Of a stretch of 64,000 nt of DNA, positions 7,875 to 61,548 are shown piece by piece. The position numbers and the translations under genes were made by a program. Position 1 is the stretch's first letter, and the number at the start of each line of letters is the position of its first letter. The notes below the pieces were generated by a model. It was not told the origin of the DNA and made no database searches. It was given only the letters and a program-made list of their open reading frames with translations. Source of the stretch: Antedon mediterranea. Lineage: Eukaryota; Animalia; Echinodermata. Location: NCBI RefSeq assembly GCF_964355755.1, contig NC_092676.1, forward strand, positions 26,554,871 to 26,618,870, given 5' to 3'.

Positions 7875-9566
7875 ATGGCTAGCAAGGATTTAAATCTACT
7901 TGGAGATATAAATGATAAACTAGAATGTTCTATCTGTAATGAAAGGCTAGAAGACCCAAAATCACTTGGCTGCCTTCATAGTTTCTGTCTGAAGTGTTTG
8001 GAAAATTGGGTTCAAATCAACAATGGACAGCTAACATGTCCTATTTGTCGCAAAGAGTATCCCATACCAGTAGGAGGGCTTGAAAAGCTTGCCCCAAATA
8101 CAATTCTAAACAACCTCTTGGAAACCATAAAACAACATGAAAAGAAAGATGAGGCTAAAGGCACTACCTTGCTGTGTGCCTCTCATGATCAACCATTGAA
8201 AATGTATTGCACAAAATGCAAATTACCAATATGCGTAGAATGCACTGCAATGGAACATACTGCAGGCGATGGAAAACATGAACTGATTAACATTGTAACA
8301 GCATTTAATACGTTTAAGGAAACCTCAGAAGAATTGAAGAAAGCTGCCAATGAATCCATAAGAAAAACAGAAAATGTACTTAAAGTAGTCACAAAGAATG
8401 CTAAAGAACTAGAAGAAAGTAAAGAGGCAAGTCTCACAGATATTGATAACCAAGTTCAAGAAATGGTACAAGTAATCCAGAAAAAAGGAGATGAAATGAG
8501 AAAAAAAGTTGAAGCAAATTATATGGTGGAAAAGGAAGGTAATGACATACAAATTACAAATTTAACAAAAATCATCTCTGAATTAAACACAAGTGTGAGT
8601 TTCCTAAATCAGTTACTAATGAGTGAGCCAGCAACTGCTATGAAATCAAGTGAGAGTGTATTAAATACACTGATGGATGAAATTAATAAATTTGAAGGAA
8701 TCAAGACAAAGGACAGCAGAAAAATTAACTTTATCAGAAACAAACAGCCAAATGATTTATTGAAAGAAAATTACATTGGAAATGTTGTATTCAAACCACT
8801 TCCTATCAAAGTAGAGGGTCAGCCTAGAGGAGTAGCAAATTGTGATGATTGCTTGCTGGTTTCATTTTGGACCAATGAAATTTACAAATACAACCAATCA
8901 GGAGAAAGTATAAGCAAGATAATACTACCAAAAGGTGTGAGAGTTAACAGAATGTACAGAATGAAGAATGGCAACATAGCATTCACTGATGTTGGTAATA
9001 AATGCATTCAAGTATGTGATATGAATGGTCATGTGATCAAATCCATTGGTAAGGGTGTATTGATTGATCCATGTGGTATTCACATAGATGAGGCAACTAA
9101 TGTTATATATGTAGCAGATTTGATGAATGGATGTGTGTTCATGTTTAACATTAATAGTGGTAAGCAGTTGAAGAAGATAGGACCACAAAATGAAGAACAT
9201 AGATACACTGATGTTACACTTACAAAAACTGGTAAAGTACTTGTAGCAGATGCAGAACAGAATCAAGTGTTATTGTATGATGACAAGAACAAGTCAATGA
9301 AAGTACTCATCAATGGAGGAGATAAAGATGGTAAGGTGATGATGCCATGTGGAGTTGTAGTTGATGAGGATGATAACATCATTACAGCAAGTATTAGCAA
9401 ACTACAACTATTCAGTAGTGATGGACATTTTATCAAAAGAATTGATCAACAAGAAGATGAAATTAGTGTACCACTGCAGTTATGTATTATTTCTCATAAC
9501 CCACATATGGTTGCTGTAGCAAATGAGGGTGACACTGACAGCACAATCAAAATATTTAATTATTAA
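7875..9566 (+). CDS. TRIM-NHL E3 ubiquitin ligase-like protein (RING, B-box2, coiled coil, NHL), 563 aa, single coding exon
   Basis: C3HC4 RING CSIC..CLHSFCLKC..CPIC; B-box CASH..YCTKCKLPICVEC..H..H; heptad region; NHL blades PxG(I/V)..ADxxN. Confidence 0.95.
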   Translation: MASKDLNLLGDINDKLECSICNERLEDPKSLGCLHSFCLKCLENWVQINNGQLTCPICRKEYPIPVGGLEKLAPNTILNNLLETIKQHEKKDEAKGTTLLCASHDQPLKMYCTKCKLPICVECTAMEHTAGDGKHELINIVTAFNTFKETSEELKKAANESIRKTENVLKVVTKNAKELEESKEASLTDIDNQVQEMVQVIQKKGDEMRKKVEANYMVEKEGNDIQITNLTKIISELNTSVSFLNQLLMSEPATAMKSSESVLNTLMDEINKFEGIKTKDSRKINFIRNKQPNDLLKENYIGNVVFKPLPIKVEGQPRGVANCDDCLLVSFWTNEIYKYNQSGESISKIILPKGVRVNRMYRMKNGNIAFTDVGNKCIQVCDMNGHVIKSIGKGVLIDPCGIHIDEATNVIYVADLMNGCVFMFNINSGKQLKKIGPQNEEHRYTDVTLTKTGKVLVADAEQNQVLLYDDKNKSMKVLINGGDKDGKVMMPCGVVVDEDDNIITASISKLQLFSSDGHFIKRIDQQEDEISVPLQLCIISHNPHMVAVANEGDTDSTIKIFNY

Positions 9567-10257
9567 TGTATAAAATATGTCATTACATTAAAGAAAGAAA
9601 GTTAATTGAAAGATCAAGTACATTTATAATCAAAATTATCTATTAATTAGTTTATTCATTTATTATCTTATTTACACTACACACATTATTTTTAAAATTT
9701 CATATCAGGCAAAACTTATGATGGTTGAATGACTTGTATTTTCTAACTTTAATATCATTTAAACTATTGTATATATACTATAATTATAAATAAATGTTTT
9801 TTGAGTTTTGTAAATGTTAACATTGTTGTAGAAATACTGTAAATCTAAGCAAAAACACAGATATGAAGAAATCATCTGAAATAGAAGATAATAAGTCGAC
9901 ACACTGTTTATTTAGGCATTTGAAGGAACAAGACATTGTGTATACAACTTGTTTGAGCAGTTTTAATCTCGTCTTTTATTTGAACGACGTTATAAACAAG
10001 TACATGCACATGTTTCAGGAAGCACTTCCCATAATCAGTGTAAAATTATATTACACGGGCCGTTTATTTGTACTCATTTGCACCGGTATTTAAATAGTAT
10101 TTTTAGAATAAGCATAATTTGAATTACTGTTTATGTTACACTTACAGGCAAAGGTAGTTTTTGTTTTTCTAGTTTTAAATCATTAAATACAACATTATTC
10201 TTATTTCATCAAGTACGCATAGATGTCTATGGTAATGGAAGTAGATTGTACCTTAAT

Positions 10258-12057
10258 AAAGTGATCACATACTGTATATAGTAATCTGTACTACCTACTA
10301 TAATATAAAGTGATCACATACTGTATATAGTAATTTGTACTACCTAGTATAATATAAAGTGATCACATACTGTATATAGTAATCTGTACTGCCTAGTATA
10401 ATATAAAGTGACCACATACTGTATATAGTAATCTGTACTACCTAGTATAATATAAAGTGATCACATACTGTATATAGTAATCTATACTACCTAGTATAAT
10501 ATAAAGTGATCACATACTGTATATAGTAATCTGTACTACCTAGTATAATATAAAGTGATCACATACTGTATATAGTAATCTGTACTACCTAGTATAATAT
10601 AAAGTGATCACATACTGTATATAGTAATCTGTACTACCTAGTATAATATAAAGTGACCACATACTGTATATAGTAATCTGTACTACCTAGTATAATATAA
10701 AGTGATCACATACTGTATATAGTAATCTGTACTACCTAGTATAATATAAAGTGATCACATACTGTATATAGTAATCTGTACTACCTAGTATAATATAAAG
10801 TGACCACATACTGTATATAGTAATCTATACTACCTAGTATAATATAAAGTGATCACATACTGTATATAGTAATCTGTACTACCTAGTATAATATAAAGTG
10901 ATCACATACTGTATATAGTAATCTGTACTACCTAGTATAATATAAAGTGATCACATACTGTATATAATAATCTGTACTACCTAGTATAATATAAAGTGAT
11001 CACATACTGTATATAATAATCTGTACTACCTAGTATAATATAAAGTGACCACATACTGTATATAATAATCTGTACTACCTAGTATAATATAAAGTGATCA
11101 CATACTGTATATAGTAATCTGTACTGCCTAGTATAATATAAAGTGATCACATACTGTATATAGTAATCTGTACTACCTAGTATAATATAAAGTGATCACA
11201 TACTGTATATAGTAATCTGTACTACCTAGTATAATATAAAGTGACCACATACTGTATATAATAATCTGTACTACCTAGTATAATATAAAGTGATCACATA
11301 CTGTATATAGTAATCTGTACTGCCTAGTATAATATAAAGTGATCACATACTGTATATAGTAATCTGTACTACCTAGTATAATATAAAGTGACCACATACT
11401 GTATATAGTAATCTGTACTACCTAGTATAATATAAAGTGATCACATACTGTATATAGTAATCTGTACTACCTAGTATAATATAAAGTGACCACATACTGT
11501 ATATAGTAATCTGTACTGCCTAGTATAATATAAAGTGACCACATACTGTATATAGTAATCTGTACTACCTAGTATAATATAAAGTGACCACATACTGTAT
11601 ATAGTAATCTGTACTGCCTAGTATAATATAAAGTGACCACATACTGTATATAGTAATCTGTACTACCTAGTATAATATAAAGTGATCACATACTGTATAT
11701 AGTAATCTGTACTACCTAGTATAATATAAAGTGATCACATACTGTATATAGTAATCTGTACTACCTAGTATAATATAAAGTGATCACATACTGTATATAG
11801 TAATTTGTACTACCTAGTATAATATAAAGTGATCATATACTGTGTATAGTAATCTGTACTACCTAGTATAATATAAAGTGATCACATACTGTATATAGTA
11901 ATCTGTACTACCTAGTATAATATAAAGTGACCACATACTGTATATAGTAATCTGTACTACCTAGTATAATATAAAGTGATCACATACTGTATATAGTAAT
12001 CTGTACTACCTAGTATAATATAAAGTGATCACATACTGTATATAGTAATTTGTACTA
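10258..12057 (+). repeat. 49-bp minisatellite, ~37 copies
   Basis: Unit AAAGTGATCACATACTGTATATAGTAATCTGTACTACCTAGTATAATAT, near-identical, no spacers. Confidence 0.97.
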
Positions 12058-20980: not shown

Positions 20981-22687
20981 ATGGCTAGCAAGAATGTAAG
21001 TCTACTTGGAGATATAGATGAGAAAGTACTAGAATGTTCTATCTGTAATGAAAGACTAGAAGACCCAAAATCACTTAGCTGTCAACATACTTTCTGTCTA
21101 AAGTGTTTGGAGAATTGGGTTCAAACCAATCGTGGCAAGCTAACATGCCCTAGTTGTCGGAAAAAGTATCCCATACCAAAAGGAGGGCTTCAAAAACTTG
21201 CCCCAAATTCAATTCTTAACAACCTCTTGGAAACCATCAAACAACACGAAAATAAAGGTGAGGTTAAAGGCACTGCCGCTCTGTGCGCCTCTCATATTCA
21301 ACCATTGAAAATGTATTGTACAAAATGTAAAGTACCAATATGCATAGAATGCACTGAAATGGAACATGCTGCAGGAGATGGAAAACATGAACTAATTAAC
21401 ATTGTAACAGCATTTAATACGTTTAAAGAAACATCAGAAGACTTAAAGAAAGCTGCCAATGAATCCATAAAAAAAACAGAAAATTTACTCAAAATAGTCA
21501 CAAAGAATGCTAAAGAACTAGAAGAAAGTAAAGAGGCAAGTCTCACAGATATTGATAACCAAGTTCAAGAAATGGTAAAAGTAATCCAGAAAAAAGGAGA
21601 AGAAATGAGAAAAAAAGTTAAAGCAAATTATATGGAGGAAAAGAAAGTCAATGATGTACAAATTACAAATTTAACAAAAATCATCTCTGAATTAAACACA
21701 AGTGTGAGTTTCCTAAATCAGTTACTAATGAGTGAGAAAGCAACTGCTATGAAATCGAGTGAGATTATATTAAATAAAATGATGGATGAAATTAACAAAT
21801 CTGAAGAAATCAAGCAAAAGGACAGCAGACAAATAACCTTCATCAGAAACAAACAACCAATTGATTTATTGAAAGAAATTGACATTGGTGATGTTGCATT
21901 CAAACCACTTTCTATTAAAGTAGAGGGTAAGCCTACAGGAGTAGCAAAGTATGATGATGATTGCTTGCTTGTTTCATTTCACACAAATGAAATTCACAAG
22001 TACAACCAATCAGGAGAATGTATAAGCAAGATTACACTACCAGCAGGTGTGAGACCTAAAAGAATATACAAAATGAAAAATGGCAACATAGCATTCAGTG
22101 ATAACGATAATAAATGCATTAAAGTATGTGATATGAATGGTCATGTGATCAAATCCATTGGTAAGGGTGTATTGATGAATCCACAGGGTATTGACATAAA
22201 TGGGGCAACTAATGTTATATATGTAGCAGATGGAGAAAATGGATGTGTGGTGTTTGACATTAATAGTGGTAAGCAGTTGAAGAAAATAGAAAAACAAGGG
22301 GGTTACTTATGGGCATTCTTAGGGGGAAACTACTCAGATGTTGCACTTACAAAAACTGGTAAATTACTTGTAGTAGATGCAGTAGACAACCAAATATTAT
22401 TGTATGATGACAAGGACAAGTCAATGAAAGTACTTATCAATAAAGGGGTTAAAGGTAAGGTGATGATGCCACGTGATGTTGTAGTTGATCAGGATGATAA
22501 CATCATCATAGCAAGTATTGACAGACTACAACTATTCTGTAGAAATGGATATTTTATCAAAAGAATTGATCAACAAGAAGATGGAATTAGTGTACCAGTA
22601 CATCAGTTATGTATCATTTCTCATAACCCACGTATGGTTGCTGTAGCAAATTACTTGGCTGATACAATTAAAATATTGAATTATTAA
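20981..22687 (+). CDS. TRIM-NHL protein, 568 aa, full length
   Basis: Paralog of 7875; ATG follows acceptor TACTATTGCAG|G; upstream donor AAG|GTATTT at 20839/20840; insertion GGYLWAFLGG in an NHL loop. Confidence 0.95.
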   Translation: MASKNVSLLGDIDEKVLECSICNERLEDPKSLSCQHTFCLKCLENWVQTNRGKLTCPSCRKKYPIPKGGLQKLAPNSILNNLLETIKQHENKGEVKGTAALCASHIQPLKMYCTKCKVPICIECTEMEHAAGDGKHELINIVTAFNTFKETSEDLKKAANESIKKTENLLKIVTKNAKELEESKEASLTDIDNQVQEMVKVIQKKGEEMRKKVKANYMEEKKVNDVQITNLTKIISELNTSVSFLNQLLMSEKATAMKSSEIILNKMMDEINKSEEIKQKDSRQITFIRNKQPIDLLKEIDIGDVAFKPLSIKVEGKPTGVAKYDDDCLLVSFHTNEIHKYNQSGECISKITLPAGVRPKRIYKMKNGNIAFSDNDNKCIKVCDMNGHVIKSIGKGVLMNPQGIDINGATNVIYVADGENGCVVFDINSGKQLKKIEKQGGYLWAFLGGNYSDVALTKTGKLLVVDAVDNQILLYDDKDKSMKVLINKGVKGKVMMPRDVVVDQDDNIIIASIDRLQLFCRNGYFIKRIDQQEDGISVPVHQLCIISHNPRMVAVANYLADTIKILNY

Positions 22688-23674
22688 AGTTAAACCAAAC
22701 ATGAATCTTTCTTTGTACAGTATATCGTTACCGTACAAAGTTAAAGGAACAAACAAAAAATCTTTTGTTTCCATATATCTGAAATGTATGTCTAGTTTTT
22801 AAAGAATGTATTTCCTTTCCACACTAAGAAAGTCATTAGAGCCTTGACTGTCTTTTGCTAAAACTGTCTGCATAAAAATATAATATCAATCACTGTGTAA
22901 AAGTGATAAATCAGTTGGATAGATCTTCGACTGTACTGTATGTTGCCGTCAGGTTTTGGCAAATGTCACAAATACCTATAAATTATTTAACTTATCACTT
23001 ATTACTGATTTGTAGATTTTATGCTTGTTTCTATTTATGTATGTTCTTCAACCCTGTTAATGGTTAAATAAAATGTAAAAAAAAAAAAAAAAAAATCTTT
23101 TAAAAACTAATTGTTGATTTCAAATGGATTGTATCCAAAAATTTTAATCTTACGATGGGTCATTTTTTTGTTTTAATTTTTATATCTTGTGACATTTGAA
23201 ATTTTGATTAATTAAATATAAACAATTGTGTCATATTTGAAGGATCTCGGCTAGGCCAAGCACTTAGCCTGGCCTAAGCCTGTTTACTTCCACTGACCCC
23301 AGCGAGGTGGAATAGCACCACGATGAGTGCTACTATAGAGATTACAAGGTCAGATCACAGCGTCATTACTTCATACATTCATAGGTAGTCTGGGTTCCAG
23401 ACGGAGTTTTGACTTAAAAAGATAAATATTTTTGTGCATGGCGTTTCTTACGTATACTACTCAAGCTGGATTACAAAAATAAAAACGTCGACTGCTGGAC
23501 TAACATATAAAAAGACAATAAATAAGTCTAGTTCACTGGCAAAAGTTCTTATCTGTTTACGGGAACAGTCAACTATGACCCATGTGGATATGATCGTTGT
23601 GTGCACTGTTCACTCAATCTAATAATATACAGTAGATTGCCTATTAAAGATGTATTGTCCCCCAAAAAACATGG

Positions 23675-23983
23675 AAAAAGAAAGATGAGATGAAGAGGAA
23701 AGTTGAAGCAAACTATATACCGGTAAAGGAAAAGAAAGTTAATGGTGTACAAAATTACAAATTTAACAAAAATCAACTCTGAATTAAACACAATTGTGAG
23801 TTCTCTAAATCAGTTGAGTGAGCCAGCAACTGCTATGAAATCAAGTGAGATTGTATTAAATAAAATGATGGATGAAATGAATAAATTATTAATTCAAGTC
23901 AGTTATGTATTATTTCAGATAACCCACATATGATTGTTGTAGCATATTACTTGGATAAGACAATTAAAGTATTACATTATTAA
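23675..23983 (+). pseudogene. TRIM-NHL remnant: coiled-coil piece fused to the last NHL blade
   Basis: KITNLTKINSELNT..EPATAMKSSEIVLNKMMDE then CAAGTCAGTTATGTATTATTTCAGATAACCCA..CATTATTAA; frameshifted, no start. Confidence 0.85.
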
Positions 23984-28990: not shown

Positions 28991-29659
28991 ATGGTAAGGT
29001 GAAGTTGCCACAGATACGGTAGTTGTAGTTGATGAGGATGATAACATCATCATAGCACGACAATCTAAAACTACAGTATTCAGTAGTGATGGGCATTTTA
29101 TCAAAAGAATTGATAAACAATTATCAGTTATGTATCATTTTTTCATAACCCACGAATGGTGACTAGCAAATGGTGATGACACAATTAAAATATTTAATTA
29201 TTAAAGTATTATAAAATAATATTAAAGGGACGTTGAATGAAAGATTACAATTAAACAAACAGTGGTGTTGGTAGACTGAGAATTTTGTTGTATTTAATAA
29301 TAGTCTATTCATGCAAATCATGATTAATAAATAATATCATTAATACTGTATGTATCAATCAAGTATTATTATATAAGGATAATAACATTTCATTTAGCAA
29401 AAAAGAAGCTGAATGAGGCAATGTGGAGGTAAAAATGTTTGATCAACCAAATAAACCAGTAATTAAAAAAATAATAACTATTATCTTTTAGTCTATTTAT
29501 TTTAAGGTACTGATCCATTTGTATATTTAATGATTTTAAACTGTTAATAATAACAACCTAATATTGCAATTTTCTATTTTAGTGGTATTTTAATTTTATT
29601 AAAACACAATTTATTTATAAAATAAAATGATATATGATATATTGATATATGATATAAAT

Positions 29660-32173: not shown

Positions 32174-33415
32174 ATGGCAAGTAATATAGATGGAACAATT
32201 CCAGAATGTGCTGAACGTCAACTTGATGAAGCATTCAAAGAGTATAAGGAAAAATTAAAAAATAACTCTATCAATAACAATGATCAACGAATACAACAAA
32301 TAGAAAATGTAATCAGAGAAGCTTCAAGTAATGCTAAAAAACTAGAAGAAAATAAAGAGGCAAGTCTCAAAGATATTGATAACCAAGTTAAAGAAATGGT
32401 ACAACTAATCAAGAAAAAAGGAGACGAAAAGAAGAAAGAAGTTAACAAAATTTATGAAAAGCAAAAGGAAGTTAATGATAAACAAATGAAACATTTTAAA
32501 GAAACCATTTCCCAATCAAATTTGAAACTAAATCAGTGTTTTGATTTGTTTTGTACTTCTGAAGAATTCAAGCAATATGACAGAAAAATTAACTTTGTTA
32601 GAAGTAAATATGTAAGAAATTTTTTGGAAGGAGAAAATTCCTTCGGAAATGTTACATGGACATTTACTACTTTAAGATTAAATCAACAGGCTTATGGAGT
32701 AGCAAAGTGTGATGATGATTACTTGCTGGTTTCATTTCACACAAATGAAATTTACAAGTACAACCATTCAGGAAATCATGTAGACACGATACTAACCAAG
32801 CAGGAAACACAAGTTGACAAAATGCAACAAATGACGAATGGACGGATTGCATTCATTGATGTTGGTTATACATGCATTCATGTATGTAATGCTACTGGTG
32901 CAGTGATCAAAACCATTGGTGAGGGTGTATTGCAAGAGCCACATGGTTTTCACATAGATGAGTCAAATAATGTTATATATGTAGCAGATGGAGGAAATGG
33001 ATGTGTGATGTTTGACCTCGATAGTGGCAAAGATTTGAAGTTTATAAGTTACAATGAAAAACATGCATACTCTGATGTTGCACTTACAAAAACTGGAAAA
33101 TTACTTGTAGCAGATACACTACAGAATGAAGTATCATTGTATGAAGACAAGGACAAGTCACTGAAAGTACTCATCAATAAAGGAGATGAAGATGGTAAGG
33201 TGTGGCACCCACATAAGATTGTAGTTGATGAAGAGGGTAACATCATCATAGCAAGTGTTGGCAAATTACAACTATTCAGTAGTGATGGAGGATTTCTCAA
33301 AAGAATTAATAAACAAGAAGATGAAATAAGTGTCAGTCAGTTATGTATCATAAAGCCATATATGATTGTTGTAGTAAACGAATTGAGCTGCAAAAGATTT
33401 ATTTATGAAATTTGA
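32174..33415 (+). CDS. Divergent RING-less, B-box-less paralog: shortened coiled coil plus complete NHL propeller, 413 aa
   Basis: ATG follows the family acceptor TACTATTGCAG|G; open frame with LEENKEASLKDIDNQV and all NHL blades; candidate donor AAG|GTTAGT at 31632/31633. Confidence 0.8.
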   Translation: MASNIDGTIPECAERQLDEAFKEYKEKLKNNSINNNDQRIQQIENVIREASSNAKKLEENKEASLKDIDNQVKEMVQLIKKKGDEKKKEVNKIYEKQKEVNDKQMKHFKETISQSNLKLNQCFDLFCTSEEFKQYDRKINFVRSKYVRNFLEGENSFGNVTWTFTTLRLNQQAYGVAKCDDDYLLVSFHTNEIYKYNHSGNHVDTILTKQETQVDKMQQMTNGRIAFIDVGYTCIHVCNATGAVIKTIGEGVLQEPHGFHIDESNNVIYVADGGNGCVMFDLDSGKDLKFISYNEKHAYSDVALTKTGKLLVADTLQNEVSLYEDKDKSLKVLINKGDEDGKVWHPHKIVVDEEGNIIIASVGKLQLFSSDGGFLKRINKQEDEISVSQLCIIKPYMIVVVNELSCKRFIYEI

Positions 33416-33558: not shown

Positions 33559-33715
33559 TACTCGCATGCCAACACTCCCGTTTTGGGAGACTCCGGTATT
33601 TTAGACTTAATTGTCTCCCGGCCTAAAATTTGCAGTCATAATTTTAAATTTTGTTATGAACAGAAAGGAGATTCCTCTCACATAGCCACCACACGATACC
33701 ACTTATGATGTATAT

Positions 33716-34075
33716 GGATACTCTGATGTTGCACTTACAAAAAGTGGTAAAGTACTTGTAGCAGATGCAGGACACAGCCAAGTATTATTGTATGATGACA
33801 AGCATAAGTCAATGAAAGTACTCATCAATAGAGGAGATGAAGATGGTAAGGTGATGATGCCATGGGATGTTGTAGTTGATGAGGATGATAACATCATCAT
33901 AGCAAGCAAAGACAAACTACAACTATTGAGTAGTGATGGGCAATTCATTAAAAGAATTGATGAACAAAAAGATGGAATTAGTAATCCAAGTCAGTTATGT
34001 ATCATTTCAGATAACCCACAAAGGATTGCTATTGGAAATTATGATGGCGACACAATTAAAATATTCAATTATTAA
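33716..34075 (+). pseudogene. Orphan C-terminal half of an NHL domain (last three blades), frame open
   Basis: YSDVALTKSGKVLVADAGHSQ..VMMPWDV..GNYDGDTIKIFNY*; no upstream domains. Confidence 0.85.
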
Positions 34076-34650: not shown

Positions 34651-35417
34651 GTCATTGATTATACTATGAGTGACAATAAAGTATACATACATGCTTTAGT
34701 AGTGTTTGCATCACTGATTTTGAAATCGTAACGCTTTGTTTAAATAGATGAATGCTTTGATCACATGATAAGGAAGTTTCAAAGTGGAAAAACCAACTTT
34801 ATTGATTACTGTAAACAATCAGTTTTAATTCCTAAAACTATCATTTGTTCTGGGAAATTATAAGGTATTTAACATTAAACAACTATATTAATTTATTTAG
34901 TTTAGTTGAATTAGTGTAACTGTACGTATTAATAGTCCCCTATTCAAACAATTCAAGATAGCTTATATGTTTAATGACAGGACACAATAATCACACAAAA
35001 ATTATATAAAATTACTCAGTTACTATCATCGTACTCGAGGACATATAAGATTTACGATTCTTGCAGCAGTAGTCATGTGATGCAGTTTCAACCAATTACG
35101 TTCATGTATTTACATAGGCTATGTAATATAATGTCATACTATATGATGCTATACTATATAATACTACTTCTATTGTGTTGAAATATCATTGATTGTATTA
35201 TGAGCGACAATAAAGTGCTTAAATAAATACTTCAGTTGTGGTTTGAAGCTGTAACACTTTGTTAAAATAGACAAATGCTTTGATAACATAAAAAAAAAAA
35301 ACTTTAATCGCTTACTGTAAACGATTGGTTTTAGTTCCTGAAACTATCATTTGAGCTGGAAAATTATAAGGTATTTAACGTAAAAAATTCTATTACATTT
35401 ATTTAGTTGAATTAGTA

Positions 35418-36347
35418 TTTCACAAAATGTAAAGTACCAATATGCATAGAATGTACACTGAAATGGAACATGCTGCAGGAGATGGAAAACATGAACTGAT
35501 TAAAATTGCTACAGCATTTATTACTAAACAGCCAATTGATTTATTGAAAGAAAATGACATCGGTAATGTTGTATTCAAACCACTTCCTATTAAAGTAGAG
35601 GATCATCCTTTGGGAGTAGCAAAGTGTGATGATGATTGCTTGCTGGTTTCATTTCTCACAAATCAAATTCACAAGTACAACCAATCAGGAGAATACACAA
35701 GCAAGATTACACTACCAAAAGGTGTGATGGTTTACAGAATGTACAGAATGAAGAATGGCAACATAGCATTCAGTGATCTGGGTAATAAATGCATTCAAGT
35801 ATGTGATATGAATGGTCATGTGATCAAATCCATTGGTAAGGGTGTATTGAAGACTCCACGTGGTATTCACATAGATGAGGCAAGTAATGTTATATATGTA
35901 GCAGATGAAGAAAATGGATGTGTGTTCATGTTTAACATTAATAGTGGTAAGCAGTTAAAGAAGATAGGGTCAGAAAATGAAGAACATGAATACACTGATG
36001 TTGCACTTACACAAACTGGTAAAGTACTTGTAGCAGATGAAGGAAATGATCAAGTATTATTGTATGATTACAAGGACCAGTCACTGAAAGTATTTATCAA
36101 TGATGGATATGAAGATGGTAAGGTGATGTGGCCAAGTGGAGTTGTAGTTGATGAGGATGACAACATCATCATAGCAAGTATTGACAAACTACAACTATTC
36201 ACTAGTGATGGACATTTTATCAAAAGAATTGATGAACAAGAAGATGGAATTAGTGTACCACTTCAGTTGTGTATCGTTTCTAATAACCCATGTATGGTTG
36301 CTGTAGCAAATGAGAGTGACAACACAATCAAAATATTTAATTATTAA
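35418..36347 (+). pseudogene. Internally deleted TRIM-NHL copy: partial B-box fused in frame to an intact NHL propeller (301-aa ORF from 35442)
   Basis: First exon (donor 35370/35371) runs into B-box sequence with acceptor and RING deleted; IATAF|ITKQPID junction removes the coiled coil; NHL uninterrupted. Confidence 0.8.
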
Positions 36348-39080: not shown

Positions 39081-39162
39081 TTTGAGTAATTGGATTATAC
39101 CAGGGAAGCACTCTTCCCTAATAATACTAGGTCAAATACAAAATATGTTAGGATAATGCAAA

Positions 39163-42472: not shown

Positions 42473-44170
42473 ATGGCTAGCAACGAATTAAGTCTACTTG
42501 GAGATATAGATGAGAAAGTACTAGAATGTTCTATCTGTAATGGAAGGCTAGAAGACCCAAAATCACTTACCTGCCTTCATAGTTTCTGTCTAAAGTGTTT
42601 GGAAAAATGGGTTCAAACCAACAATGGACAGCTAACATGTCCTATTTGTCGCAAGTTGAATCTCATTCCAGTAGGAGGGCTTCAAAATCTTCCGCCAAAT
42701 ACAGTTCTTAACAACCTTTTGGAAACTGTTAAACAACATGAACAGAAAAATGAGATCAAAAGCACCGCATTGTTGTGCCCTTCTCATACTCAACCATTAG
42801 AGATGTATTGCACAAAATGTAAAGTACCAATTTGCATAGAATGCACTGAAATGGAACATGCTGCAGGAGATGGAAAACATGAACCAATTGGCATTATAAC
42901 AGCATTAGAAATGTTTAAAGAAAGCTCATTTGAATTAAAAAAAGCCGCAAATGAATCCATAAGAAAAATAGAAAATGCACTAAAAATTGTCACAAAGAAT
43001 GCTAACGAATTAGAAGAAAGTAAAGAGGCAAGTCTCACAGAAATTGATAACACAGTTAAACAAATAGTAAAAATAATCCAGAAAAAAGGTGACGAAATAA
43101 AGGAAAAAGTTGAAGTAATTTATCAAAATGGCAAGAAATATAATGATGCACAAATTAAGAAATTAAAAACAATCAATTCTGAATTAGATACACATTTGAG
43201 TTTCCTAAATCAGTTATTAAAGAGTAAGCCAGCAACTGCTATGAAATCAAGTGACATTGTATTAAATACACTGATGGATGAAATTAATAATTCTGAAGAA
43301 ATCACACAAAGGGACAGTGGAAAAATTAACTTTATCAGAAACCAAGATCAAATTGATTTATTGAAAGAAAATGACATTGGAAATGTTACAATCACAGAAC
43401 CTACTGTCAAAGTAGAGGGTATACCTAGAGGAGTAGCAACGTGTGATGATGATTGCTTGCTGGTTTCATTTCGCACAAACGAAATTTACAAATACAAACA
43501 ATCAGGAGAATATATAAGTAATATTCTTTTACCAGAAGATGTGAAAGTCAGAAGAATGTACAAAATGAAGAATGGCAACATAGCATTCACTGATGTTGGT
43601 AATAAATGCATTCAAGTATGTGATATGAATGGTCATGTGATCAAATCCATTGGTAAGGATGTATTAACATTTCCACATGGTATTCACATAAATGAGTCAA
43701 CGAATGTCTTATATGTTGCAGATATTGTCCTGCAATGTGTGTTGATGTTTGACTTTAATAGTGGTGAGCAGTTGAAGAAAATAGAAACACCAGATATAGG
43801 ATCTCTTGAGTGTTCTGATGTTGCGCTTACAAAAACTGGTAAAGTACTTATAGCCGATGAAGGAAAACATCAAGTATTATTATATGATAATGATGATGAA
43901 ATGTCACTGAAAGTAATTATCAATAAAGGTGATAAAGATGGTAAGGTAATGATGCCAAGTGAAATTGTAGTTGATGAGGATGATAACATCATCATAGCAA
44001 GTAGCAACAAACTACAACTATTCAGTAGTGATGGACATTTTATCAAAAGAATTGATCAACAAGAAGATGAAATTAGTGATTCAAGTCAGTTATGTATCAT
44101 TTCACATAACCCATGTATGCTAGTTGTAGCAAATTACAGTGACAACACAATCAAACTATTTAATTATTAA
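42473..44170 (+). CDS. TRIM-NHL protein, 565 aa, full length
   Basis: RING, B-box, coiled coil and NHL intact; acceptor TACTATTGCAG|G; likely first-exon donor at 37154/37155. Confidence 0.95.
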   Translation: MASNELSLLGDIDEKVLECSICNGRLEDPKSLTCLHSFCLKCLEKWVQTNNGQLTCPICRKLNLIPVGGLQNLPPNTVLNNLLETVKQHEQKNEIKSTALLCPSHTQPLEMYCTKCKVPICIECTEMEHAAGDGKHEPIGIITALEMFKESSFELKKAANESIRKIENALKIVTKNANELEESKEASLTEIDNTVKQIVKIIQKKGDEIKEKVEVIYQNGKKYNDAQIKKLKTINSELDTHLSFLNQLLKSKPATAMKSSDIVLNTLMDEINNSEEITQRDSGKINFIRNQDQIDLLKENDIGNVTITEPTVKVEGIPRGVATCDDDCLLVSFRTNEIYKYKQSGEYISNILLPEDVKVRRMYKMKNGNIAFTDVGNKCIQVCDMNGHVIKSIGKDVLTFPHGIHINESTNVLYVADIVLQCVLMFDFNSGEQLKKIETPDIGSLECSDVALTKTGKVLIADEGKHQVLLYDNDDEMSLKVIINKGDKDGKVMMPSEIVVDEDDNIIIASSNKLQLFSSDGHFIKRIDQQEDEISDSSQLCIISHNPCMLVVANYSDNTIKLFNY

Positions 44171-51336: not shown

Positions 51337-51820
51337 ATGGCTAGCAACAGCTTGATTGTGTCAATAAAAGAGAAAGACCTAGAATGTCCTATTTTAATGA
51401 AAGACTAACAAATCCAAAATCACATCATAATTTCTGTCAAGTGTTTGGAGAATTTGGTTTAAAAAAACAAAGGCAAGTTAACATGTCCAAATTGTCCCAA
51501 CAAAAATCCCATTCCAGAAGGAGGGCTTCAAAATCTTGCACAAAAAACATTTCTAAACAATCTCTTAGAAACTGTCAAACAACAAGAAGAGGTTTGGAAA
51601 AGAATTTAATACGTTTAAGGAAACATCAGAAAAAGCTGCCAATGAATCCATAAAAAACCAGAAAATATACTTAGAGTAGTCACAAAGAATGCTAAAGAAC
51701 TAGAAGAAAGTAAAGAGGCAAGTTTCACGGATATTGATAACCAAGTTCAAGAAATAGTACAAGTAATCCAGAAAAAAGGAGAAGAAATGAAGAGGAAAGT
51801 TGAAGCAAATTATATGGAAA
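51337..51820 (+). pseudogene. Decayed TRIM 5' half (RING remnant, B-box deleted, part of coiled coil)
   Basis: TTACAG|GATGGCTAGC, several frameshifts, then AATGCTAAAGAACTAGAAGAAAGTAAAGAGGCAAGT; ends at the next copy's upstream module; donor at 49705/49706. Confidence 0.88.
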
Positions 51821-52410: not shown

Positions 52411-54048
52411 ATGGCTAGCAAGGATTTAAATCTACTTGGAGATATAAATGATAAACTAGAATGTTCTATCTGTAATGAAAGGCTAGAAGACCCAAAATCA
52501 CTTAGCTGCCATCATAGTTTCTGTCTGAAGTGTTAACTTGCACCAAATACAATTCTTAACAACCTCTTGGAAACCATCAAACAACATGAAGTAAAAGATG
52601 AGGTTACTGGCACTGCCTCTCTGTGTGCCTCTCATGCTAAACCGTTAGAAATGTATTGTACAAAATGTAAAGTACCAATATGCATAGAATGCACTGAAAT
52701 GGAACATGCCGCAGGAGATGGAAAACATGAACTAATTAACATTGTAACAGCATTTAATACGTTTAAGGAAACATTAGAAGACTTAAAGAAAGCTGCCAAT
52801 GAATCCATGAGAAAAACAGACAATGAACTTAAAGTAGTCACAAAGAATGCTAAAGAACTAGAAGAAAGTAAAGATGCAAGTCTCAGAGATATTGATAACC
52901 AAGTTCAAGAAATGGTACAAGTAACCAAGAAAAAAGGAAAGAAAATGAGAAAAAAAGGAGAAGAAATGAGAAAAAAAGAAGAAGAAATGAGAAAAGAAGT
53001 TGAAGCAAATTATATGAAGGAAAAGAAAGTTAATGATGTAAAAATTACAAATTTAACAAAAATCATCTCTGAATTAAACACAAGTGTGAGTTTCGTAAAT
53101 CAGTTACTAATGAGTGAGCCAGCAACTGCTATGAAATCAAGTGAGAGTGTATTAAATACACTAATGGATGAAATTAATAAATCTCAAGAAATCAAGCAAA
53201 AGGACAGCAGACAAATTAACTTCATCAGAAACAAACAGTCAATTGATTTACTGAAAGTTGGAAATGTTATAATCAAACCACTTCCTATCAAAGTAGAGGC
53301 TAATCCTTGGGGAGTAGCAAAGTGTGATGATGATTACTTGCTGGTTTCATTTCTCTCAAATGAAATTCACAAGTACAACCAATCAGGAGAATGTATAAGC
53401 AAGATTACACTACCAAAAGGTGTGATGGTTAATAGAATGTACAGAATGAAGAATGGCAACATAGCGTTCAGTGATAAAGGTAAAACATGCATTCAAGTAT
53501 GTGATATGAATGGTCATGTGATCAAATCCATTGGTAAGGGTGTATTGATGGATCCACGTGGTATTCACATAGATGAGGCAACTAATGTTATATATGTAGC
53601 AGATGCAGGAAATGGATGTGTGTTCATGTTTGACATTAATTATAGTGGTAAGCAGTTAAAGAAGATAGGATCACAAAATGAAGAACATAGATACTCTGAT
53701 GTTGCACTTACAAAAACTGGTAAAGTACTTGTAGCAGATAAAGGACAGCATCAAGTATTATTGTATGATGACAAGAACCAGTCACTGAAAGTATTTATCA
53801 ATGAAGGAGTTAAAGATGGCAAGGTGAGGTTGCCACATGGAGTTGTAGTTGATGAGGATGATAACATCATCATAGCAAGTACTGACAAACTACAACTATT
53901 CAGTAGTGATGGACATTTTATAAAAAGAATTGATCAACAAGAAGATAGAATTAGTGTACCACTTCAGTTATGTATCATCTCTCATAATCCATGTATGGTT
54001 GCTGTAGCAAATTACAGTGAAAAAACAATCAAAATATTTAATTATTAA
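52411..54048 (+). pseudogene. TRIM-NHL copy with an in-frame RING deletion creating a stop at codon 42; downstream frame intact
   Basis: CTG AAG TGT TAA CTT GCA CCA (TAA at 52534-52536), ~87 bp missing relative to 55797; 493-codon ORF 52567-54048 in the same frame. Confidence 0.85.
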
Positions 54049-54529: not shown

Positions 54530-55157
54530 AGTGATCACAATACTGTATATAGTAATCTGTACTACCTAGTATAATATAAAGTGATCACATACTGTATATA
54601 GTAATCTGTACTACCTAGTATAATATAAAGTGATCACATACTGTATATAGTAATCTGTACTGCCTAGTATAATATAAAGTGATCACATACTGTATATAGT
54701 AATCTGTACTACCTAGTATAATATAAAGTGATCACATACTGTATATAGTAATCTGTACTGCCTAGTATAATATAAAGTGATCACATACTGTGTATAGTAA
54801 TACTGTCTACCTAGTATAATATAAAGTGATCACATACTGTATATAGTAATCTGTACTACCTAGTATAATATAAAGTGATCACATACTGTATATAGTAATC
54901 TGTACTACCTAGTATAATATAAAGTGATCACATACTGTATATAGTAATCTGTACTGCCTAGTATAATATAAAGTGATCACATACTGTATATAGTAATCTG
55001 TACTACCTAGTATAATATAAAGTGATCACATACTGTATATAGTAATCTGTACTGCCTAGTATAATATAAAGTGATCACATACTGTGTATAGTAATACTGT
55101 CTACCTAGTATAATATAAAGTGATCACATACTGTGTATAGTAATCTGTACTACCTAC
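54530..55157 (+). repeat. 49-bp minisatellite, ~13 copies
   Basis: Same unit and same 3'-flank position as 10258-12057. Confidence 0.95.
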
Positions 55158-55796: not shown

Positions 55797-56228
55797 ATGG
55801 CTAGCACGGATTTAAATCTACTTGGAGATATAAATGATAAACTAGAATGTTCTATCTGTAATGGAAGGCTAGAAGACCCAAAATCACTTGGCTGCCTTCA
55901 TAGTTTCTGTCTGAAGTGTTTGGAAAATTGGGTTCAAACCAACAATGGACAGCTAACATGTCCTATTTGTCGCAAAGAGTATCCCATACCAGCAGGAGGG
56001 CTTCAAAAGCTTGCCCCAAATACAATTCTTAACAACCTCTTGGAAACCATCAAACAACATGAAGAGAAAGATGAGGCTAAAAGCACTGCTTCTTTGTGCG
56101 TCTCTCATGCTAAACCATTAGAAATGTATTGTACAAAATGTAAAGTACCAATATGCATAGAATGCACTGCAATGGAACATGCCGCAGGAGATGGAAAACA
56201 TGAACTAATTAACATTGTAACAGCATAG
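55797..56228 (+). pseudogene. 3'-truncated TRIM copy: intact RING plus B-box only (143-aa ORF)
   Basis: Very similar to 7875 up to INIVTA, then TAG from unrelated sequence; no coiled coil or NHL follows. Confidence 0.8.
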
Positions 56229-57114: not shown

Positions 57115-57336
57115 GAGAAGGTAAAGGTATTTATTTTGGTCTTCAAACTTAACTAGAAACTGAGGAAATCTGGGCCTCTACAAACCCATGGCAACCAGGA
57201 GTGGAGCGTCTACCAAGTTCTTTAACATGCACTATACATACACGGCTTTACGTCTCATCCGAAGGACGAGGCAATGAGAATAAAGCATCTTGCCTAAGGA
57301 TACAATTAGTATGGTACAGAGATTCGATCCCATGCC
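57115..57336 (-). mobile_element. SINE-like element interrupted by the 57337 transposon
   Basis: Minus strand GGGATCGAATC (B-box-like), CCTTAGGCAAGATGCTTT, GTCCTTCGGATGAGACGTAAA, tail TACCTTTACCTT. Confidence 0.6.
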
Positions 57337-59077
57337 CAGGCCCGTATCCAGGGGGGGTGCGTTGGGTGCAGACGCACCCCGCCAAGTCCCAAAAGGTCCA
57401 CTATTTCCTCGGTTGGTATTTTTTCTTGTTTTGTTTAACTAAAGACAATATCATTATATATATACAAAATTTACATTATCAATGGTATACAAACAAAAAT
57501 ATGCTAATATAAAATGAAAAAATACCGGTAATTAAATTACGGAATCTGAACTGACTACAAACTCGATGTAAAACATGCGCAGTCGATCATGTGACGACAA
57601 GCAATAGCTTAGCGCTTCATGTACGCGGTACGCGGTAAAGTGTTTGCTGGAGAAATACAGACAACTTAACGTCAGGGAACACGTGTACTTTTTGTCGGGG
57701 AATATAATATACAGTAAAAAGCGTTCGCGTTCACTTCGTAGCTAGCTTCAGCGCCTAGAAAACCGCGACGTTTCATTGACCGTGAGAGTACGTCAGAGTG
57801 ACATTATGCACTTTATATGCATTCATTATTGCCAGCGATCTAACTTACTACTAAACAATAGCTAGGTACGCACTTGTCTGGCGGTATCCCTTTGTACGAA
57901 TCGTTCAACGTTGGGTCGAGACGCGTGATATCAAGTTTCATCCAGGGACCAAAATGTGTAATGTGTTATTTTCCAGGCGAAGTTTACCGACGGTTACGTC
58001 GTGTACTGCGTCGACGTACGCTACACTACAGCAAAAACGAATTATGTTAATTGTTCGTTTGTTCACCAATTTTTTAATTTACAAGTAACTTTCTGTACCG
58101 TGGGGCACCTAAAATAAATTTTTCATCCATTACTAAACAAAAAAACATGCCATTTTCGCTTAGCCAACATTATAGCTATAGTTATTACATTTTCAATATC
58201 CTGTATGTCATGAATTTCTCACCACTCGGAAGTCCAGATGGTACGCATGCATACACCTGGGAGGAATAAACTTTTTTCCCCGACTGAAAAAGGTCTACGC
58301 TTGCGTTTTTTAAGCCTCTAGGCCTGATGTTTCCAAAGTATAAAATGACCTGCAGCTCTAGTTTTAAACATTTTCTTAGCTCAGCCCCAACAATAAAGCT
58401 GGTCATATTTCGAAGAACAAGAAGTACATTTTCCGGGACCTAACATCTCTATTTTTCAAACATTTCTTAGCTCAGTCACAACCCATGATAGGGACTTATA
58501 TATTTTTTTTCATGTTTTGAAGTATAATAAGTCCGATTTCCGGGACCTCCAACTCTATTTTTCAAAATTTTCTTTGAACTTTTATTTTCTAAATTGAAAA
58601 ATATGGATTGAAACCGTCATCGCGCATCGTTTTTTTGCACGCAGTATTTTATTTATGCATTATAAAAAATGGAAAAAATGGCTACCCTAAATCTGATTAA
58701 AAAGACCTCAAATGACGCTAGAACGCGTTGCTTCCGGGGGCTTCTCCCCCTGGACCCCCACCGGGGGCCCTTAGCCTAGTGATGCTCGCTTCGCTCGCAT
58801 AGCCCCCTCGTCGGAGAATGTAGCCCCCGCGTCGGGAAGATCCTGGCGCCACCCCTGCTGAGTTGGCCTCATCATGAAAGCGTTAAGTTCTGGTGTCCAT
58901 CGTTCAACTAGCCCAAGCCACAACAGAGAGTCTTACATCAGTCTTTAGAACGTCAAATAACGCAAATTTTTCCAGGCCCTTCGGCCCCTGGACCCTGACC
59001 GGGGGCCCTTGGCGGCCCCCTGGCCCCCAGCCATTGTTGCTCGCACCCCCCCATTATAAATGCTGCATACGGGCCTG
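57337..59077. mobile_element. Non-autonomous hAT-like transposon with 5-bp TSD
   Basis: ATGCC|CAGGCCCGTATCCAG...CTGCATACGGGCCTG|ATGCC; GC-rich subtermini. Confidence 0.8.
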
Positions 59078-59787
59078 ATGCCTATCACATACCAGTACGA
59101 TATTATCATTACAGAACTGGTGTTTTAACACGTATTGAATTGTGATACATGTAGATGTATTGATAATTGTTTCATATGGTAAAGTGAACAATTATAATCA
59201 CATTCAACTGTTGAAAATCATCAACAAACAAACTATTGTGATGGATTGATTTAATTAAGTGTTCTGCATCCCAAATTTTGAAATCATCACACTACACCTA
59301 CAGTAGTCTAGAATATTGCTCTGGACATATATGATATTTCAACGCAGAAAAACCAACTTTACAGCATTTCATTATTGGGAAAGTTAGTTTTAATTCTTGT
59401 AACTAACATTTGAATACAGTACAAGGTATTTACATATAAATTGCTTTTTGTGGATTTAATTTGTATACAAGTCTCATATACAAACAACCATGATACTGTA
59501 GATGGACTTAGTTAGATGTACAGTACTTAGGCATGGCTGGAATTGGAGAACTAGGTACATGTGTCCTATTTTATTCTCCAGTCTTGTTTCTGAAATCTAA
59601 TCTAAAATATGGTGTGGATATTCAGTTAATAATTAATTGTTATTTAATGCTCCATATTCATCTAAATTACACACAAAATCCTAAAGTAATAACTTTTATT
59701 GTGTTGGGTAGAAAGGAACATGGTGAGAATAAACAGTTTGTAATATTATTTTTATTAAACAAAATAATTATAAATTACTATTACAGG

Positions 59788-61548
59788 ATGGCTAGCAAGG
59801 ATTTAAGTCTACTTGGAGATATAGATGAGAAAGTACTAGAATGTTCTATCTGTAATGAAAGGCTAGAAAACCCAAAATCACTTAGCTGTCTTCATAGTTT
59901 CTGTCTGAAGTGTTTGAAGAATTGGGTTCGAACCAATGGCAAGCTAACATGCCCTATATGTCGCAAAGAGTATCCTATTCCAGTAGGAGGGCTTCAAAAA
60001 CTTGCACCAAATACCTTTCTTAACAACCTTTTGGAAACTGTAAAACAACACGAACAGAAAAGGAAGGTTAAAGGCACTGCCTTTCTGTGCCCCTCTCATG
60101 CTCAACAATTAAAAATGTATTGTACAAAATGTAAAGTACCAATATGCATAGAATGCACTGAAATGGAGCATATTGCAGGGGATGGAAAACATGAACTAAT
60201 TAACATCGCAACAGCATTTAATACGTTTAAGGAAACATCAGAAGACTTAAAGAAAGCTGCCAATGAATCGATACAAAAAATTGAAAATGTACTCAAAATA
60301 GTCACAAAGAATGCTAAAGAACTAGAAGAAAGTAAAGAGGCAAGTATCACAGATATTGATGACCAAGTTCAAGAAATGGTACAAATAATCAAGAAAAAAG
60401 GAGAAGAAATGAGAAAAAAAGTTGAAGCAAATTATATGGAGGAAAAGGAAGTTAATGACGTACAAATTACAAATTTAACAAAAACCATCTCTGAATTAAA
60501 CACAAGTGTGAGTTTCCTAAATCAGTTACTAAAGAGTGAGCCAGCAACTGCTATGAAATCAAGTGGGATTGTATTAAATAAAATGATGGATGAAATTAGT
60601 AAATCTGAAGAAATCAAGCAAAAGGACAGCAGACAAATTAACTTCATCAGAAACAAACAGCAAATTGATTTATTGAAAGAAAATGACATTGGAAATGTTA
60701 CATTCAAACAAGTTAATATTAAGGAAGAGGATATGCCTAGCAGAGTAGCAAAGTGTGATGATGACATTGGAAATGTTGTATTCAAACCACTTCCTATCAA
60801 AGTAGAGGCTAATCCTTGGGGAGTAGCAAAGTGTGATGATGATTACTTGCTGGTTTCATTTCTCTCAAATGAAATTCACAAATACAACCAATCAGGAGAA
60901 TGTATAAGCAAGATTACACTACCAGAAGGTGTGAGAGTTAACAGAATGTACAGAATGAAGAATGGCAACATAGCATTCAGTGATGTCGGTAAAAAATGCA
61001 TTCAAGTATGTGATATGAATGGTCATGTGATCAAATCTATTGGTAAGGGTGTATTGAAGAATCCACATGGTATTCACATAGATGAGGCAGCTAATGTTAT
61101 ATATGTAGCAGATGCAGGAAATGGATGTGTGTTCATGTTTAACATTAATAGTAAGCAGTTGAAGAAGATAGGAACACAAAATGAAGAACATGATTACTAT
61201 GATGTTACACTTACAAAAATTGGTAAAGTATTTGTAGCAGATGAAGCACAGCATCAAGTATTATTGTATGATGACAAGGACAAGTCAATGAAAGTACTCA
61301 TCAATAGAGGATTTGAAGATGGTAAGGTGAGGTGGCCAAAAGGAGTTGTAGTTGATGAGGATGACAACATCATCATAGCAAGTATTGACAAACTACAACT
61401 ATTCAGTAGTGACGGACATTTTATCAAAAGGATTGATCAACAAGAAGAAATTATTTATCCAGAGCAGTTATGCATCATTTCTTATAACCCATGTATGATT
61501 GCTGTAGCAAATTGGGGTGGCAAAACAATCAAAATATTAAATTATTAA
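59788..61548 (+). CDS. TRIM-NHL protein, 586 aa, full length, with a 26-aa duplication at the NHL start
   Basis: ATG after TACTATTACAG|G; donor at 59425/59426; all domains intact. Confidence 0.95.
   Translation: MASKDLSLLGDIDEKVLECSICNERLENPKSLSCLHSFCLKCLKNWVRTNGKLTCPICRKEYPIPVGGLQKLAPNTFLNNLLETVKQHEQKRKVKGTAFLCPSHAQQLKMYCTKCKVPICIECTEMEHIAGDGKHELINIATAFNTFKETSEDLKKAANESIQKIENVLKIVTKNAKELEESKEASITDIDDQVQEMVQIIKKKGEEMRKKVEANYMEEKEVNDVQITNLTKTISELNTSVSFLNQLLKSEPATAMKSSGIVLNKMMDEISKSEEIKQKDSRQINFIRNKQQIDLLKENDIGNVTFKQVNIKEEDMPSRVAKCDDDIGNVVFKPLPIKVEANPWGVAKCDDDYLLVSFLSNEIHKYNQSGECISKITLPEGVRVNRMYRMKNGNIAFSDVGKKCIQVCDMNGHVIKSIGKGVLKNPHGIHIDEAANVIYVADAGNGCVFMFNINSKQLKKIGTQNEEHDYYDVTLTKIGKVFVADEAQHQVLLYDDKDKSMKVLINRGFEDGKVRWPKGVVVDEDDNIIIASIDKLQLFSSDGHFIKRIDQQEEIIYPEQLCIISYNPCMIAVANWGGKTIKILNY

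Follow-up and report, generated by a model that had tools for sequence, protein, structure and literature searches.

The proteins closest in architecture to those described here are the TRIM-NHL proteins (class C-VII, or Marin subfamily C: TRIM2, TRIM3, TRIM32, TRIM71/LIN-41, Brat, Mei-P26 and Thin), in which the same RING/B-box/coiled-coil module is followed by a six-bladed NHL propeller. The known members are a handful of conserved regulators of development, and TRIMs engaged in arms races are known as a vertebrate B30.2 feature. The accessible part of PMC2533329 describes the group 1 TRIMs as 1:1 orthologs under purifying selection, and in the available portion of PMC3845644, which concerns primates, TRIM2 alone of class C-VII is listed as selected, weakly and with both sites outside known domains. 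Clustered, lineage-specific genes with positive selection concentrated on a C-terminal recognition surface, such as are found in the present array, have been reported for teleost finTRIMs and for primate TRIM5 and TRIM22 (class IV, B30.2; PMC2657112, in its available part), and the fungal het-d/het-e WD-repeat receptors likewise combine diversifying selection on a propeller surface with exchange between family members (PMC1805685, as excerpted).

The stretch of DNA analysed here (the window) comprises 64,000 nucleotides from the crinoid Antedon mediterranea, and carries RING/B-box/coiled-coil/NHL genes, each with a single coding exon, arrayed in tandem on the + strand (Table 1). Four genes (G1, G2, G5 and G7) are intact, the others being RING-less, broken or partial, and eight NHL-bearing copies span positions 8781 to 61548. 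G3 is identical to A. mediterranea XP_071955261.1 until near the C-terminus, G4 is likely to be a pseudogene, G6 is likely to be either a pseudogene or the source of a RING-less product, and G7 has a 78-bp internal tandem duplication immediately before its NHL domain. Gene conversion is present: in one of 15 pairs, G6/G7, 27 polymorphic sites in a row are shared (p = 0.003, uncorrected). Ancestry among the array copies is a patchwork. The xxPx and ADxx motifs and three strand scaffolds listed in the original prediction are all in frame on the + strand of the eight NHL-bearing copies, and its SFx and Nxx slots are visible in the alignment. The scaffolds had been called nearly invariant, but each is exact in four of the eight copies and close in the other four; in the slot lists, WHPH belongs to the divergent G3, MMPW and NYD come from the partial G3b, and the MMPS of G5 had been omitted.

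The RING of each intact gene matches Pfam zf-C3HC4 (E = 3e-10 to 6e-10) with all eight ligands present, and zf-B_box exceeds its cut-off in all four; the RING is missing in G3 and broken in G6, and the TRIM_CC match in G7 is weak (E = 4e-4, under the cut-off). The C-terminal domain is NHL, the window copies giving no match to SPRY (B30.2). Nor did Pfam match a filamin domain in these copies, and since the relatives P0007 (below cut-off) and P0012 do carry filamin, it has likely been lost in the window's subgroup. The array proteins show no evident signal peptide or membrane segment in their sequences and therefore look cytoplasmic. An AlphaFold model of the G1 NHL domain has six blades and 24 strands (pLDDT 95.5), for which the best Foldseek matches are the NHL domains of TRIM2, TRIM3 and Thin (TM 0.84–0.86 to TRIM2/TRIM3).

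Table 1. Gene copies and fragments of the array, and selected top-face codons of G1 (first base of each codon; M8 posterior >0.9; span 8820..9536), in window coordinates.
Feature	Position	Strand	Description
G1	7875..9566	+	intact, single coding exon, RING/B-box2/coiled-coil/NHL, 563 aa; NHL 8781-9563
G1 selected codons, blade 1	8820, 8868	+	
G1 selected codons, blade 2	8940, 8991	+	
G1 selected codons, blade 3	9063, 9066, 9072, 9120, 9123	+	
G1 selected codons, blade 4	9183, 9195, 9201, 9258	+	
G1 selected codons, blade 5	9315, 9321, 9348	+	
G1 selected codons, blade 6	9468, 9474, 9525, 9534	+	
G2	20981..22687	+	intact, 568 aa; NHL 21890-22684; 6-residue insertion in da4 top loop
Broken fragment	23663..23980	+	coiled coil fused to blade 6; tblastn
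Broken fragment	28991..29201	+	blades 5-6, frameshifted
G3	32174..33415	+	divergent open copy, 413 aa, without RING or B-box
G3b	33713..34075	+	partial, blades 4-6 only
G4	35416..36347	+	internal deletion, frameshifted B-box remnant; NHL whole (35565-36344)
G5	42473..44170	+	intact, 565 aa; NHL 43382-44167
Decayed fragment	51337..51816	+	N-terminal
G6	52411..54048	+	RING with deletion and in-frame stop; NHL whole (53263-54045)
Fragment	55797..56228	+	RING/B-box only, ends at stop
G7	59788..61548	+	intact, 586 aa; NHL 60772-61545
Fragment	62590..62718	+	blades 2-3
Further copy	63718..64000	+	RING region, continues past window end

Hypervariability had been predicted to lie on the top face of the propeller, i.e. 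the bc and da loops (as defined in the legend to Fig. 5, within the accessible part of PMC4015489), and it is there that the selected codons were found. With strands and loops taken from DSSP of the AlphaFold model, so that the top-face classes reflect DSSP and topology rather than atom coordinates, an M8 posterior >0.9 was reached by 16 of the 72 codons in top loops and by none of the 46 in bottom loops (Fisher p = 2e-4), and one >0.95 by 15 of 135 in the top half and 0 of 109 in the bottom half (p = 2e-4); one extra >0.9 site, model residue 173, is on the bottom half. Such >0.9 sites occur in all six blades; slots had been listed for blades 1, 3, 5 and 6 only. Of the 30 blade slots 14 exceed this posterior, compared with 7 of the 231 remaining sites, and a fixed-class model gives the top loops an omega of 1.66 and the bottom loops one of 0.30 (LRT 72.7). 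Relatives, which were compared as proteins only, show the same positions varying, again clustered on one face of the fold rather than dispersed: among 48 paralogs from a second crinoid genus (Anneissia japonica) all of the 25 most variable columns lie on the top half, as do 24 of 25 among 17 A. mediterranea paralogs from outside the window. The set used for entropy contains 72 of 82 rows, P0040 and P0072 having been dropped for length together with eight distant unnamed TRIMs, and among these 72 domains 27 of the 30 slots tolerate 9–17 different residues. In a quick tree the paralogs group by genus (6 label changes, versus 22 in shuffles).

The codon tests were restricted to the window's own 4–8 copies; two likely pseudogenes are among the six copies tested. 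For the NHL domain the site models gave LRTs of 69.8 (M2a versus M1a) and 69.5 (M8 versus M8a), with omega ~6.8 at 15% of codons. The LRT was 68 with F61 frequencies, 38.7 with a multi-nucleotide model, 60.9 for the four intact genes alone, and 68 and 61 with segment-wise trees (3 and 6 segments respectively), and the N-terminal half of the four intact genes gave p = 0.35. Allowing for both site-rate variation and multi-nucleotide changes, p was 0.03 for the NHL domain of six copies, 0.019 for the four intact genes and 0.13 for the whole gene. Neither of the two refuting tests named beforehand in the original prediction went against it: omega is above 1 at these sites under most models, and the sites lie on one face. 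The diversifying selection proposed there retains p = 0.02–0.03 for the NHL domain under the most conservative model.

It might nevertheless be that, the duplicates being redundant, their top loops merely lack constraint, with omega apparently raised above 1 by multi-base changes, uneven rates, conversion or misalignment. Neutral-plus-purifying simulations with 0–10 conversion tracts per lineage gave a maximum LRT of 13.3 in 56 runs; a null with site-rate variation, multi-nucleotide changes and conversion gave plain LRTs of 14–97 in 14 of 14 runs, so that the plain LRT alone is no proof of selection. Similarly favourable to this explanation are the presence of gene conversion (G6/G7), the many broken copies, and the result for whole top loops with a free synonymous rate, where omega is not significantly above 1 (p = 0.22 and 0.85); the selection signal is confined to about 15–30 slots rather than entire top loops. 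At independently chosen positions omega is 3–6 when the synonymous rate of the whole domain is the reference: for the 20 columns that vary most in Anneissia, the window copies give 5.6 (or 4.6, LRT 49, if multi-nucleotide changes are allowed), and for the 14 LIN-41 RNA-contact equivalents 3.2–4.8. A hypervariable class with its own synonymous rate gives omega 0.8–2.5, no fit being significant (best p = 0.053). Synonymous differences were seen in 8 of 75 same-residue pairs at the Anneissia-variable columns: selection models predict a fraction of 0.12–0.13, whereas fast-neutral models predict 0.26–0.32 (p = 0.0025 and 0.017), 2.5–3 times more than seen. Likelihood alone cannot separate the two readings, but these simulations (p = 0.003–0.017) lead to rejection of the neutral one. 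Also against relaxed constraint are the variation of these same isolated codons in a second genus, the greater variability in Anneissia of window-selected sites relative to the rest of the top-loop sites (p = 0.003), and the persistence of the Anneissia-defined result (omega 6.05) when the two loops with indels are left out. It is accordingly disfavoured, and we regard it as very unlikely; diversifying selection on the predicted ligand-binding face is supported. Targeted hypermutation was also considered and rejected, as the synonymous rate is raised neither at the variable codons nor at those neighbouring them.

If selection is real, the nature of the ligand has still to be considered. The original prediction looked to RNA, on which reading the copies would be RNA binders like Brat, LIN-41 or TRIM56, with selection diversifying the sequence or shape of (viral or transposon) RNA that they read. 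The array's variable positions do match the top-face slots with which LIN-41 touches RNA, NHL faces reach different RNA-binding solutions (PMC5908797, in its accessible part), and the top half is positive in some Anneissia copies, up to +8. However, with LIN-41 numbering counted by hand on an alignment against that same part of PMC5908797, Lys or Arg occupies 8 of the 14 contact positions in LIN-41 but 1–3 of their equivalents in the six window copies and 0–5 in the 72 crinoid domains, so that the conserved basic pocket of LIN-41/TRIM71 type is missing from the window copies; top-half net charge in six copies is -10, -5, -3, 0, +2 and +4; and the closest solved folds, TRIM2/3, have a mixed-charge groove and are held unlikely to bind RNA in the manner of Brat (PMC9634614, available text). 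RNA binding is thus unlikely to be what is selected, and a foreign ligand is more likely to be protein than RNA. A partner might instead be the animal's own rather than microbial: the copies could serve to tell self from non-self, be engaged in conflict between gametes or in the germ line, or bind proteins encoded by transposons. The germ-line activity of many TRIM-NHL proteins counts towards this possibility, as does the same signature of concerted evolution with few selected propeller-surface residues in het-d/het-e (PMC1805685, excerpts). Nonetheless, the cytoplasmic appearance of the proteins speaks against an own partner, and the many paralogs in both genera and the DED-like fusions described below would better suit a pathogen-sensing repertoire, so that this too seems improbable.

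The reading preferred here, with a probability of roughly 0.6, is of a birth-and-death crinoid TRIM-NHL array in which the copies would be intracellular immune sensors of foreign ligands, and in which the NHL propeller diversifies fastest at a fixed set of predicted top-face contact slots, likely positively selected because each copy would sense a different ligand. The propeller would bind that ligand in the cell and the RING ligase would ubiquitinate it. From TRIM biology one would expect the coiled coil to dimerise the protein and keep two propellers apart, the B-box to assemble higher-order structures where a target is multivalent, and an E2 to be recruited by the RING, the target then being tagged for degradation or signalling started. 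Duplication, changes of one or several bases, and conversion of one copy by another would supply new specificities, selection retaining new residues at the P-2, P-1, P+1, D+1 and D+2 slots of every blade.

An N-terminal module common to four Anneissia relatives is scored by Pfam as DED (E = 7e-9 for P0126); in searches with a low-confidence model of this module (pLDDT 59) caspase-8/cFLIP tandem DEDs ranked first, as a weak fold match (E = 0.26). These fusions are predicted gene models outside the window, which contains no DED-like exon. A profile of the Anneissia module did not match the similar-looking N-termini of Antedon P0199 and P0226, and the match between P0226 and P0126 was weak (E = 2e-6). 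An Atlas search returned generic NHL clusters only, while a profile search of 50% representatives was crowded by giant multi-NHL proteins, the single-domain matches looked up (10 of 10) being crinoid. No expanded, positively selected TRIM-NHL family was found in the literature searched, a body that excludes most subscription papers. A tentative possibility is that this propeller has given crinoids, and perhaps further invertebrates of the sea, a large repertoire of intracellular receptors encoded in the germline, with a fixed six-bladed frame and about 30 freely varying contact slots that are shuffled between copies by gene conversion. The propeller would be coupled either to a RING, by which the target is destroyed, or to death-effector domains in tandem, by which the cell is killed. 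Such a repertoire would be an invertebrate counterpart, absent from the literature searched, of TRIM5/finTRIM and NLR-type sensors.

Known invertebrate immune expansions are those of TLRs, NLRs and scavenger receptors, with little on direct ubiquitin-based restriction, and to these an echinoderm expansion of TRIM-NHL genes under positive selection would add a class of sensors in the cytoplasm. The array, drawn from a propeller class usually regarded as conserved, likely represents a set of candidate intracellular immune sensors; it marks propeller positions that tolerate any residue, and its short, single-exon domains, being easily expressed, would be useful for ligand discovery.

Whereas known TRIM-NHL proteins are few and conserved, the lineage-specific paralogs here number in the dozens and have selected contact slots, and the window's subgroup differs further in being without the LIN-41 basic pocket, without filamin, and only 19–23% identical to solved NHL domains. 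Thomas in 2006 reportedly described expanded families of ubiquitin-ligase adaptors in nematodes and plants, of the F-box and MATH-BTB kinds, with selected substrate-binding domains, and proposed that they target foreign proteins; those are adaptors of cullin ligases, whereas the array proteins are single-chain RING ligases. In het-d/het-e the repeats are homogenised within a gene and the output is HET/NACHT, whereas in the array the blades differ, exchange is between genes, and the output would be through the RING. As for finTRIMs, a lineage-specific cluster and a selected recognition surface are both found here, the latter more weakly under the strictest model; finTRIM, TRIM5 and TRIM22 carry B30.2, with virus induction and restriction shown, whereas the array carries NHL. 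The best reading of the family, by analogy, is as a finTRIM/TRIM5-like immune E3-ligase repertoire in which NHL would take the place of B30.2.

The NHL domain of the array genes is predicted to fold as a six-bladed propeller (AlphaFold model built with 82 aligned sequences; pLDDT 95.5, pTM 0.92), and the solved structures that match it best are those of the TRIM2, TRIM3, Thin and TRIM71 NHL domains (TM 0.81–0.86, identity 19–23%). The top face of an NHL domain is defined by the bc and da loops (PMC4015489, legend to Fig. 5), and each residue was assigned, blind to variability, to a top loop, top strand half, bottom strand half or bottom loop using DSSP on the model, an assignment that is topological rather than derived from atom coordinates. 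Among the six close copies in the window, 16 of 72 top-loop codons but none of 46 bottom-loop codons had an M8 posterior above 0.9. A posterior above 0.95 was reached by 15 of 135 codons on the top half and by none of 109 on the bottom half, and each of the six blades contains selected sites. This confirms the original observation that hypervariability is concentrated on the predicted top-face loops. As judged from protein sequences, the one-face pattern is replicated outside the window: the top half carries all of the 25 most variable columns in 48 Anneissia domains and 24 of the 25 in a set of 17 further Antedon domains, and column entropy correlates at the protein level with the window posteriors (rho 0.43 and 0.49, respectively). 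In the bc3 loop of intact gene G5, four adjacent codons are unlike those of the other copies and resemble the loop type of the relatives P0003, P0005 and P0121; gene conversion over a short stretch, with a more distantly related paralog as donor, may account for this.

Using codon models custom-written for this analysis, 15% of codons were placed at ω ~6.8 (LRT 69.8 for M2a vs M1a, 69.5 for M8 vs M8a). The signal persisted: the LRT was 68 under F61 frequencies and 38.7 when codons could change at two or three positions at once, and the four intact genes by themselves gave 60.9 (19.0 with multiple changes). In the N-terminal half the test was not significant for the intact genes (p=0.35) and weakly significant when the broken copy G6 was added (p=0.03). 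Gene conversion is present (G6 and G7 are 98% identical across blade 1), but separate trees for each segment still gave LRTs of 61–68, and the highest value in 56 null simulations with conversion was 13.3. A null combining conversion with uneven site rates and multi-base changes yielded plain LRTs of 14–97 in 14 of 14 runs; the strictest fit, which allows uneven site rates and multi-base changes, gave p=0.03 for the six copies, 0.019 for the four intact genes and 0.13 for the whole gene.

There is also the possibility that the hypervariable codons simply change fast and neutrally. Neither the complete set of top loops nor the hypervariable class had ω significantly above 1 when it was given its own synonymous rate. 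A set chosen independently of the window, namely the 20 most variable Anneissia columns, gave ω of 5.6 in the window relative to the domain synonymous rate (4.6 with multiple changes), a separate synonymous rate being unnecessary once multiple changes were allowed (p=0.22). Where pairs of copies share the same residue at these codons, silent differences number 8 in 75 (0.107, against 0.074 at other sites); simulations (2000 runs each) gave fractions of 0.12–0.13 under selection and 0.26–0.32 under fast neutral change, which is thereby rejected (p=0.017 and 0.0025). All in all, diversifying selection on the NHL propeller, as originally proposed for its ligand face, is supported within the limits set by the stricter models, and we would put its probability at roughly 85%.

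As to the ligand, equivalents of the LIN-41 RNA contacts named in PMC5908797 were counted along an alignment; all 14 of those named fall in five slots per blade, which are the two residues preceding the blade proline, the one that follows it, and the pair next to the strand-b aspartate on its C-terminal side. Posteriors above 0.9 were found in the crinoid copies at 7 of 14 contact equivalents, 14 of 30 slots and 7 of 231 other sites, with ω of 3.2–4.8 at the contact equivalents and 4.1–5.1 at the slots, although the slot definition overlaps the slots originally picked out, making the LIN-41 and Anneissia sets the fairer tests. On this alignment, it is the predicted binding site itself that varies. 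The suggestion that the ligand is RNA gained no support: LIN-41 has eight Lys or Arg at the 14 contact positions, the window copies have 1–3 and the 72 crinoid domains 0–5, while the top-half net charge (a residue count, not electrostatics) ranges from -10 to +4 across the six copies, so that a conserved RNA-binding mode is not supported. Individual copies could bind RNA, but a varied protein ligand would fit better.

The window (GC ~31%) holds a tandem array in which all genes lie on the + strand. Every one has a single coding exon, with a splice acceptor directly upstream of its ATG. G1, G2, G5 and G7 are complete RING/B-box/coiled-coil/NHL genes, none having an exact sequence match in the protein collection searched; G3 is an open reading frame lacking RING and B-box, identical to A. 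mediterranea XP_071955261.1 until near the C-terminus, which makes that species the very likely source of the window; the remaining copies (G3b, G4, G6 and six fragments) are incomplete or disrupted. The family reaches beyond the window, additional paralogs being P0002–P0005 and P0121. The model for P0121 (A. mediterranea XP_071955621.1, 989 aa) fuses two adjacent family copies and that for P0064 has a spliced end, which suggests that annotation of the array is poor. Among the repeats in the table, the 576-bp pair is a very recent duplication or insertion, the 49-bp unit was co-duplicated with the gene unit, as its position downstream of G1, G6 and G4 indicates, and the sequence directly upstream of G7 is a high-copy repeat.

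Positions of repeats and other local features in the window
Feature	Position(s)	Remarks
101-bp satellite	1-2058; 5667-7146	two arrays in opposite orientation, just upstream of first gene
49-bp tandem repeat	10256-12057; 54529-55156; ~37057-37101	37 copies; 13 copies; single unit
Repeat element within array	24142-25462; 37805-39081	two copies in opposite orientation, 80-92% identity
Non-LTR retrotransposon reverse-transcriptase C-terminal region	~29700-30500	decayed, frameshifted; recognised by eye, no Pfam match
576-bp direct repeat	39162-39736; 41860-42435	99.5% identity; brackets ~2.1 kb immediately upstream of G5, taking in its upstream region
G5 bc3 loop	43718-43735	
High-copy repeat	56300-56920; 57128-59197	very high summed contig depth relative to gene in 4/4 runs

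Of the 120 matches listed, 72 are proteins of Antedon mediterranea or Anneissia japonica (identity ≤81%), after which the next drops to E 2.5e-28; the closest relatives among the matches listed are thus crinoid without exception. In a quick tree, paralogs cluster by genus (6 label changes vs 22 when shuffled), and the seven window domains join six other filamin-less Antedon proteins with support 98. Most Anneissia members are ~720 aa long, filamin being retained in those scanned. Four of them (P0126, P0202, P0134 and P0063) share an N-terminal helical module, of which P0126 has two, standing where the RING would be. The P0126 module scores barely over the Pfam DED cut-off (E 7e-9), and in searches with a low-confidence model of the module the caspase-8/cFLIP tandem DEDs took the first 11 ranks, with weak E-values. 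Antedon P0199 and P0226 have a related-looking N-terminal module, by weak match only. These fusions, which are predicted gene models, hint that the same variable propeller may be wired to cell-death signalling via a DED-like module.

No report of such a TRIM-NHL expansion was found in the open literature searched, nor is one described in the available portions of two TRIM surveys (PMC3503706, PMC3137616). A putative role for the array genes as immune E3 sensors seems rather more probable than otherwise. In domain content these are TRIM-NHL genes. Their evolution resembles that of the finTRIMs and TRIM5 (PMC2657112) and of the fungal het-d/e propellers (PMC1805685), and differs from that of group 1 TRIMs, which are conserved (PMC2533329, PMC3845644).
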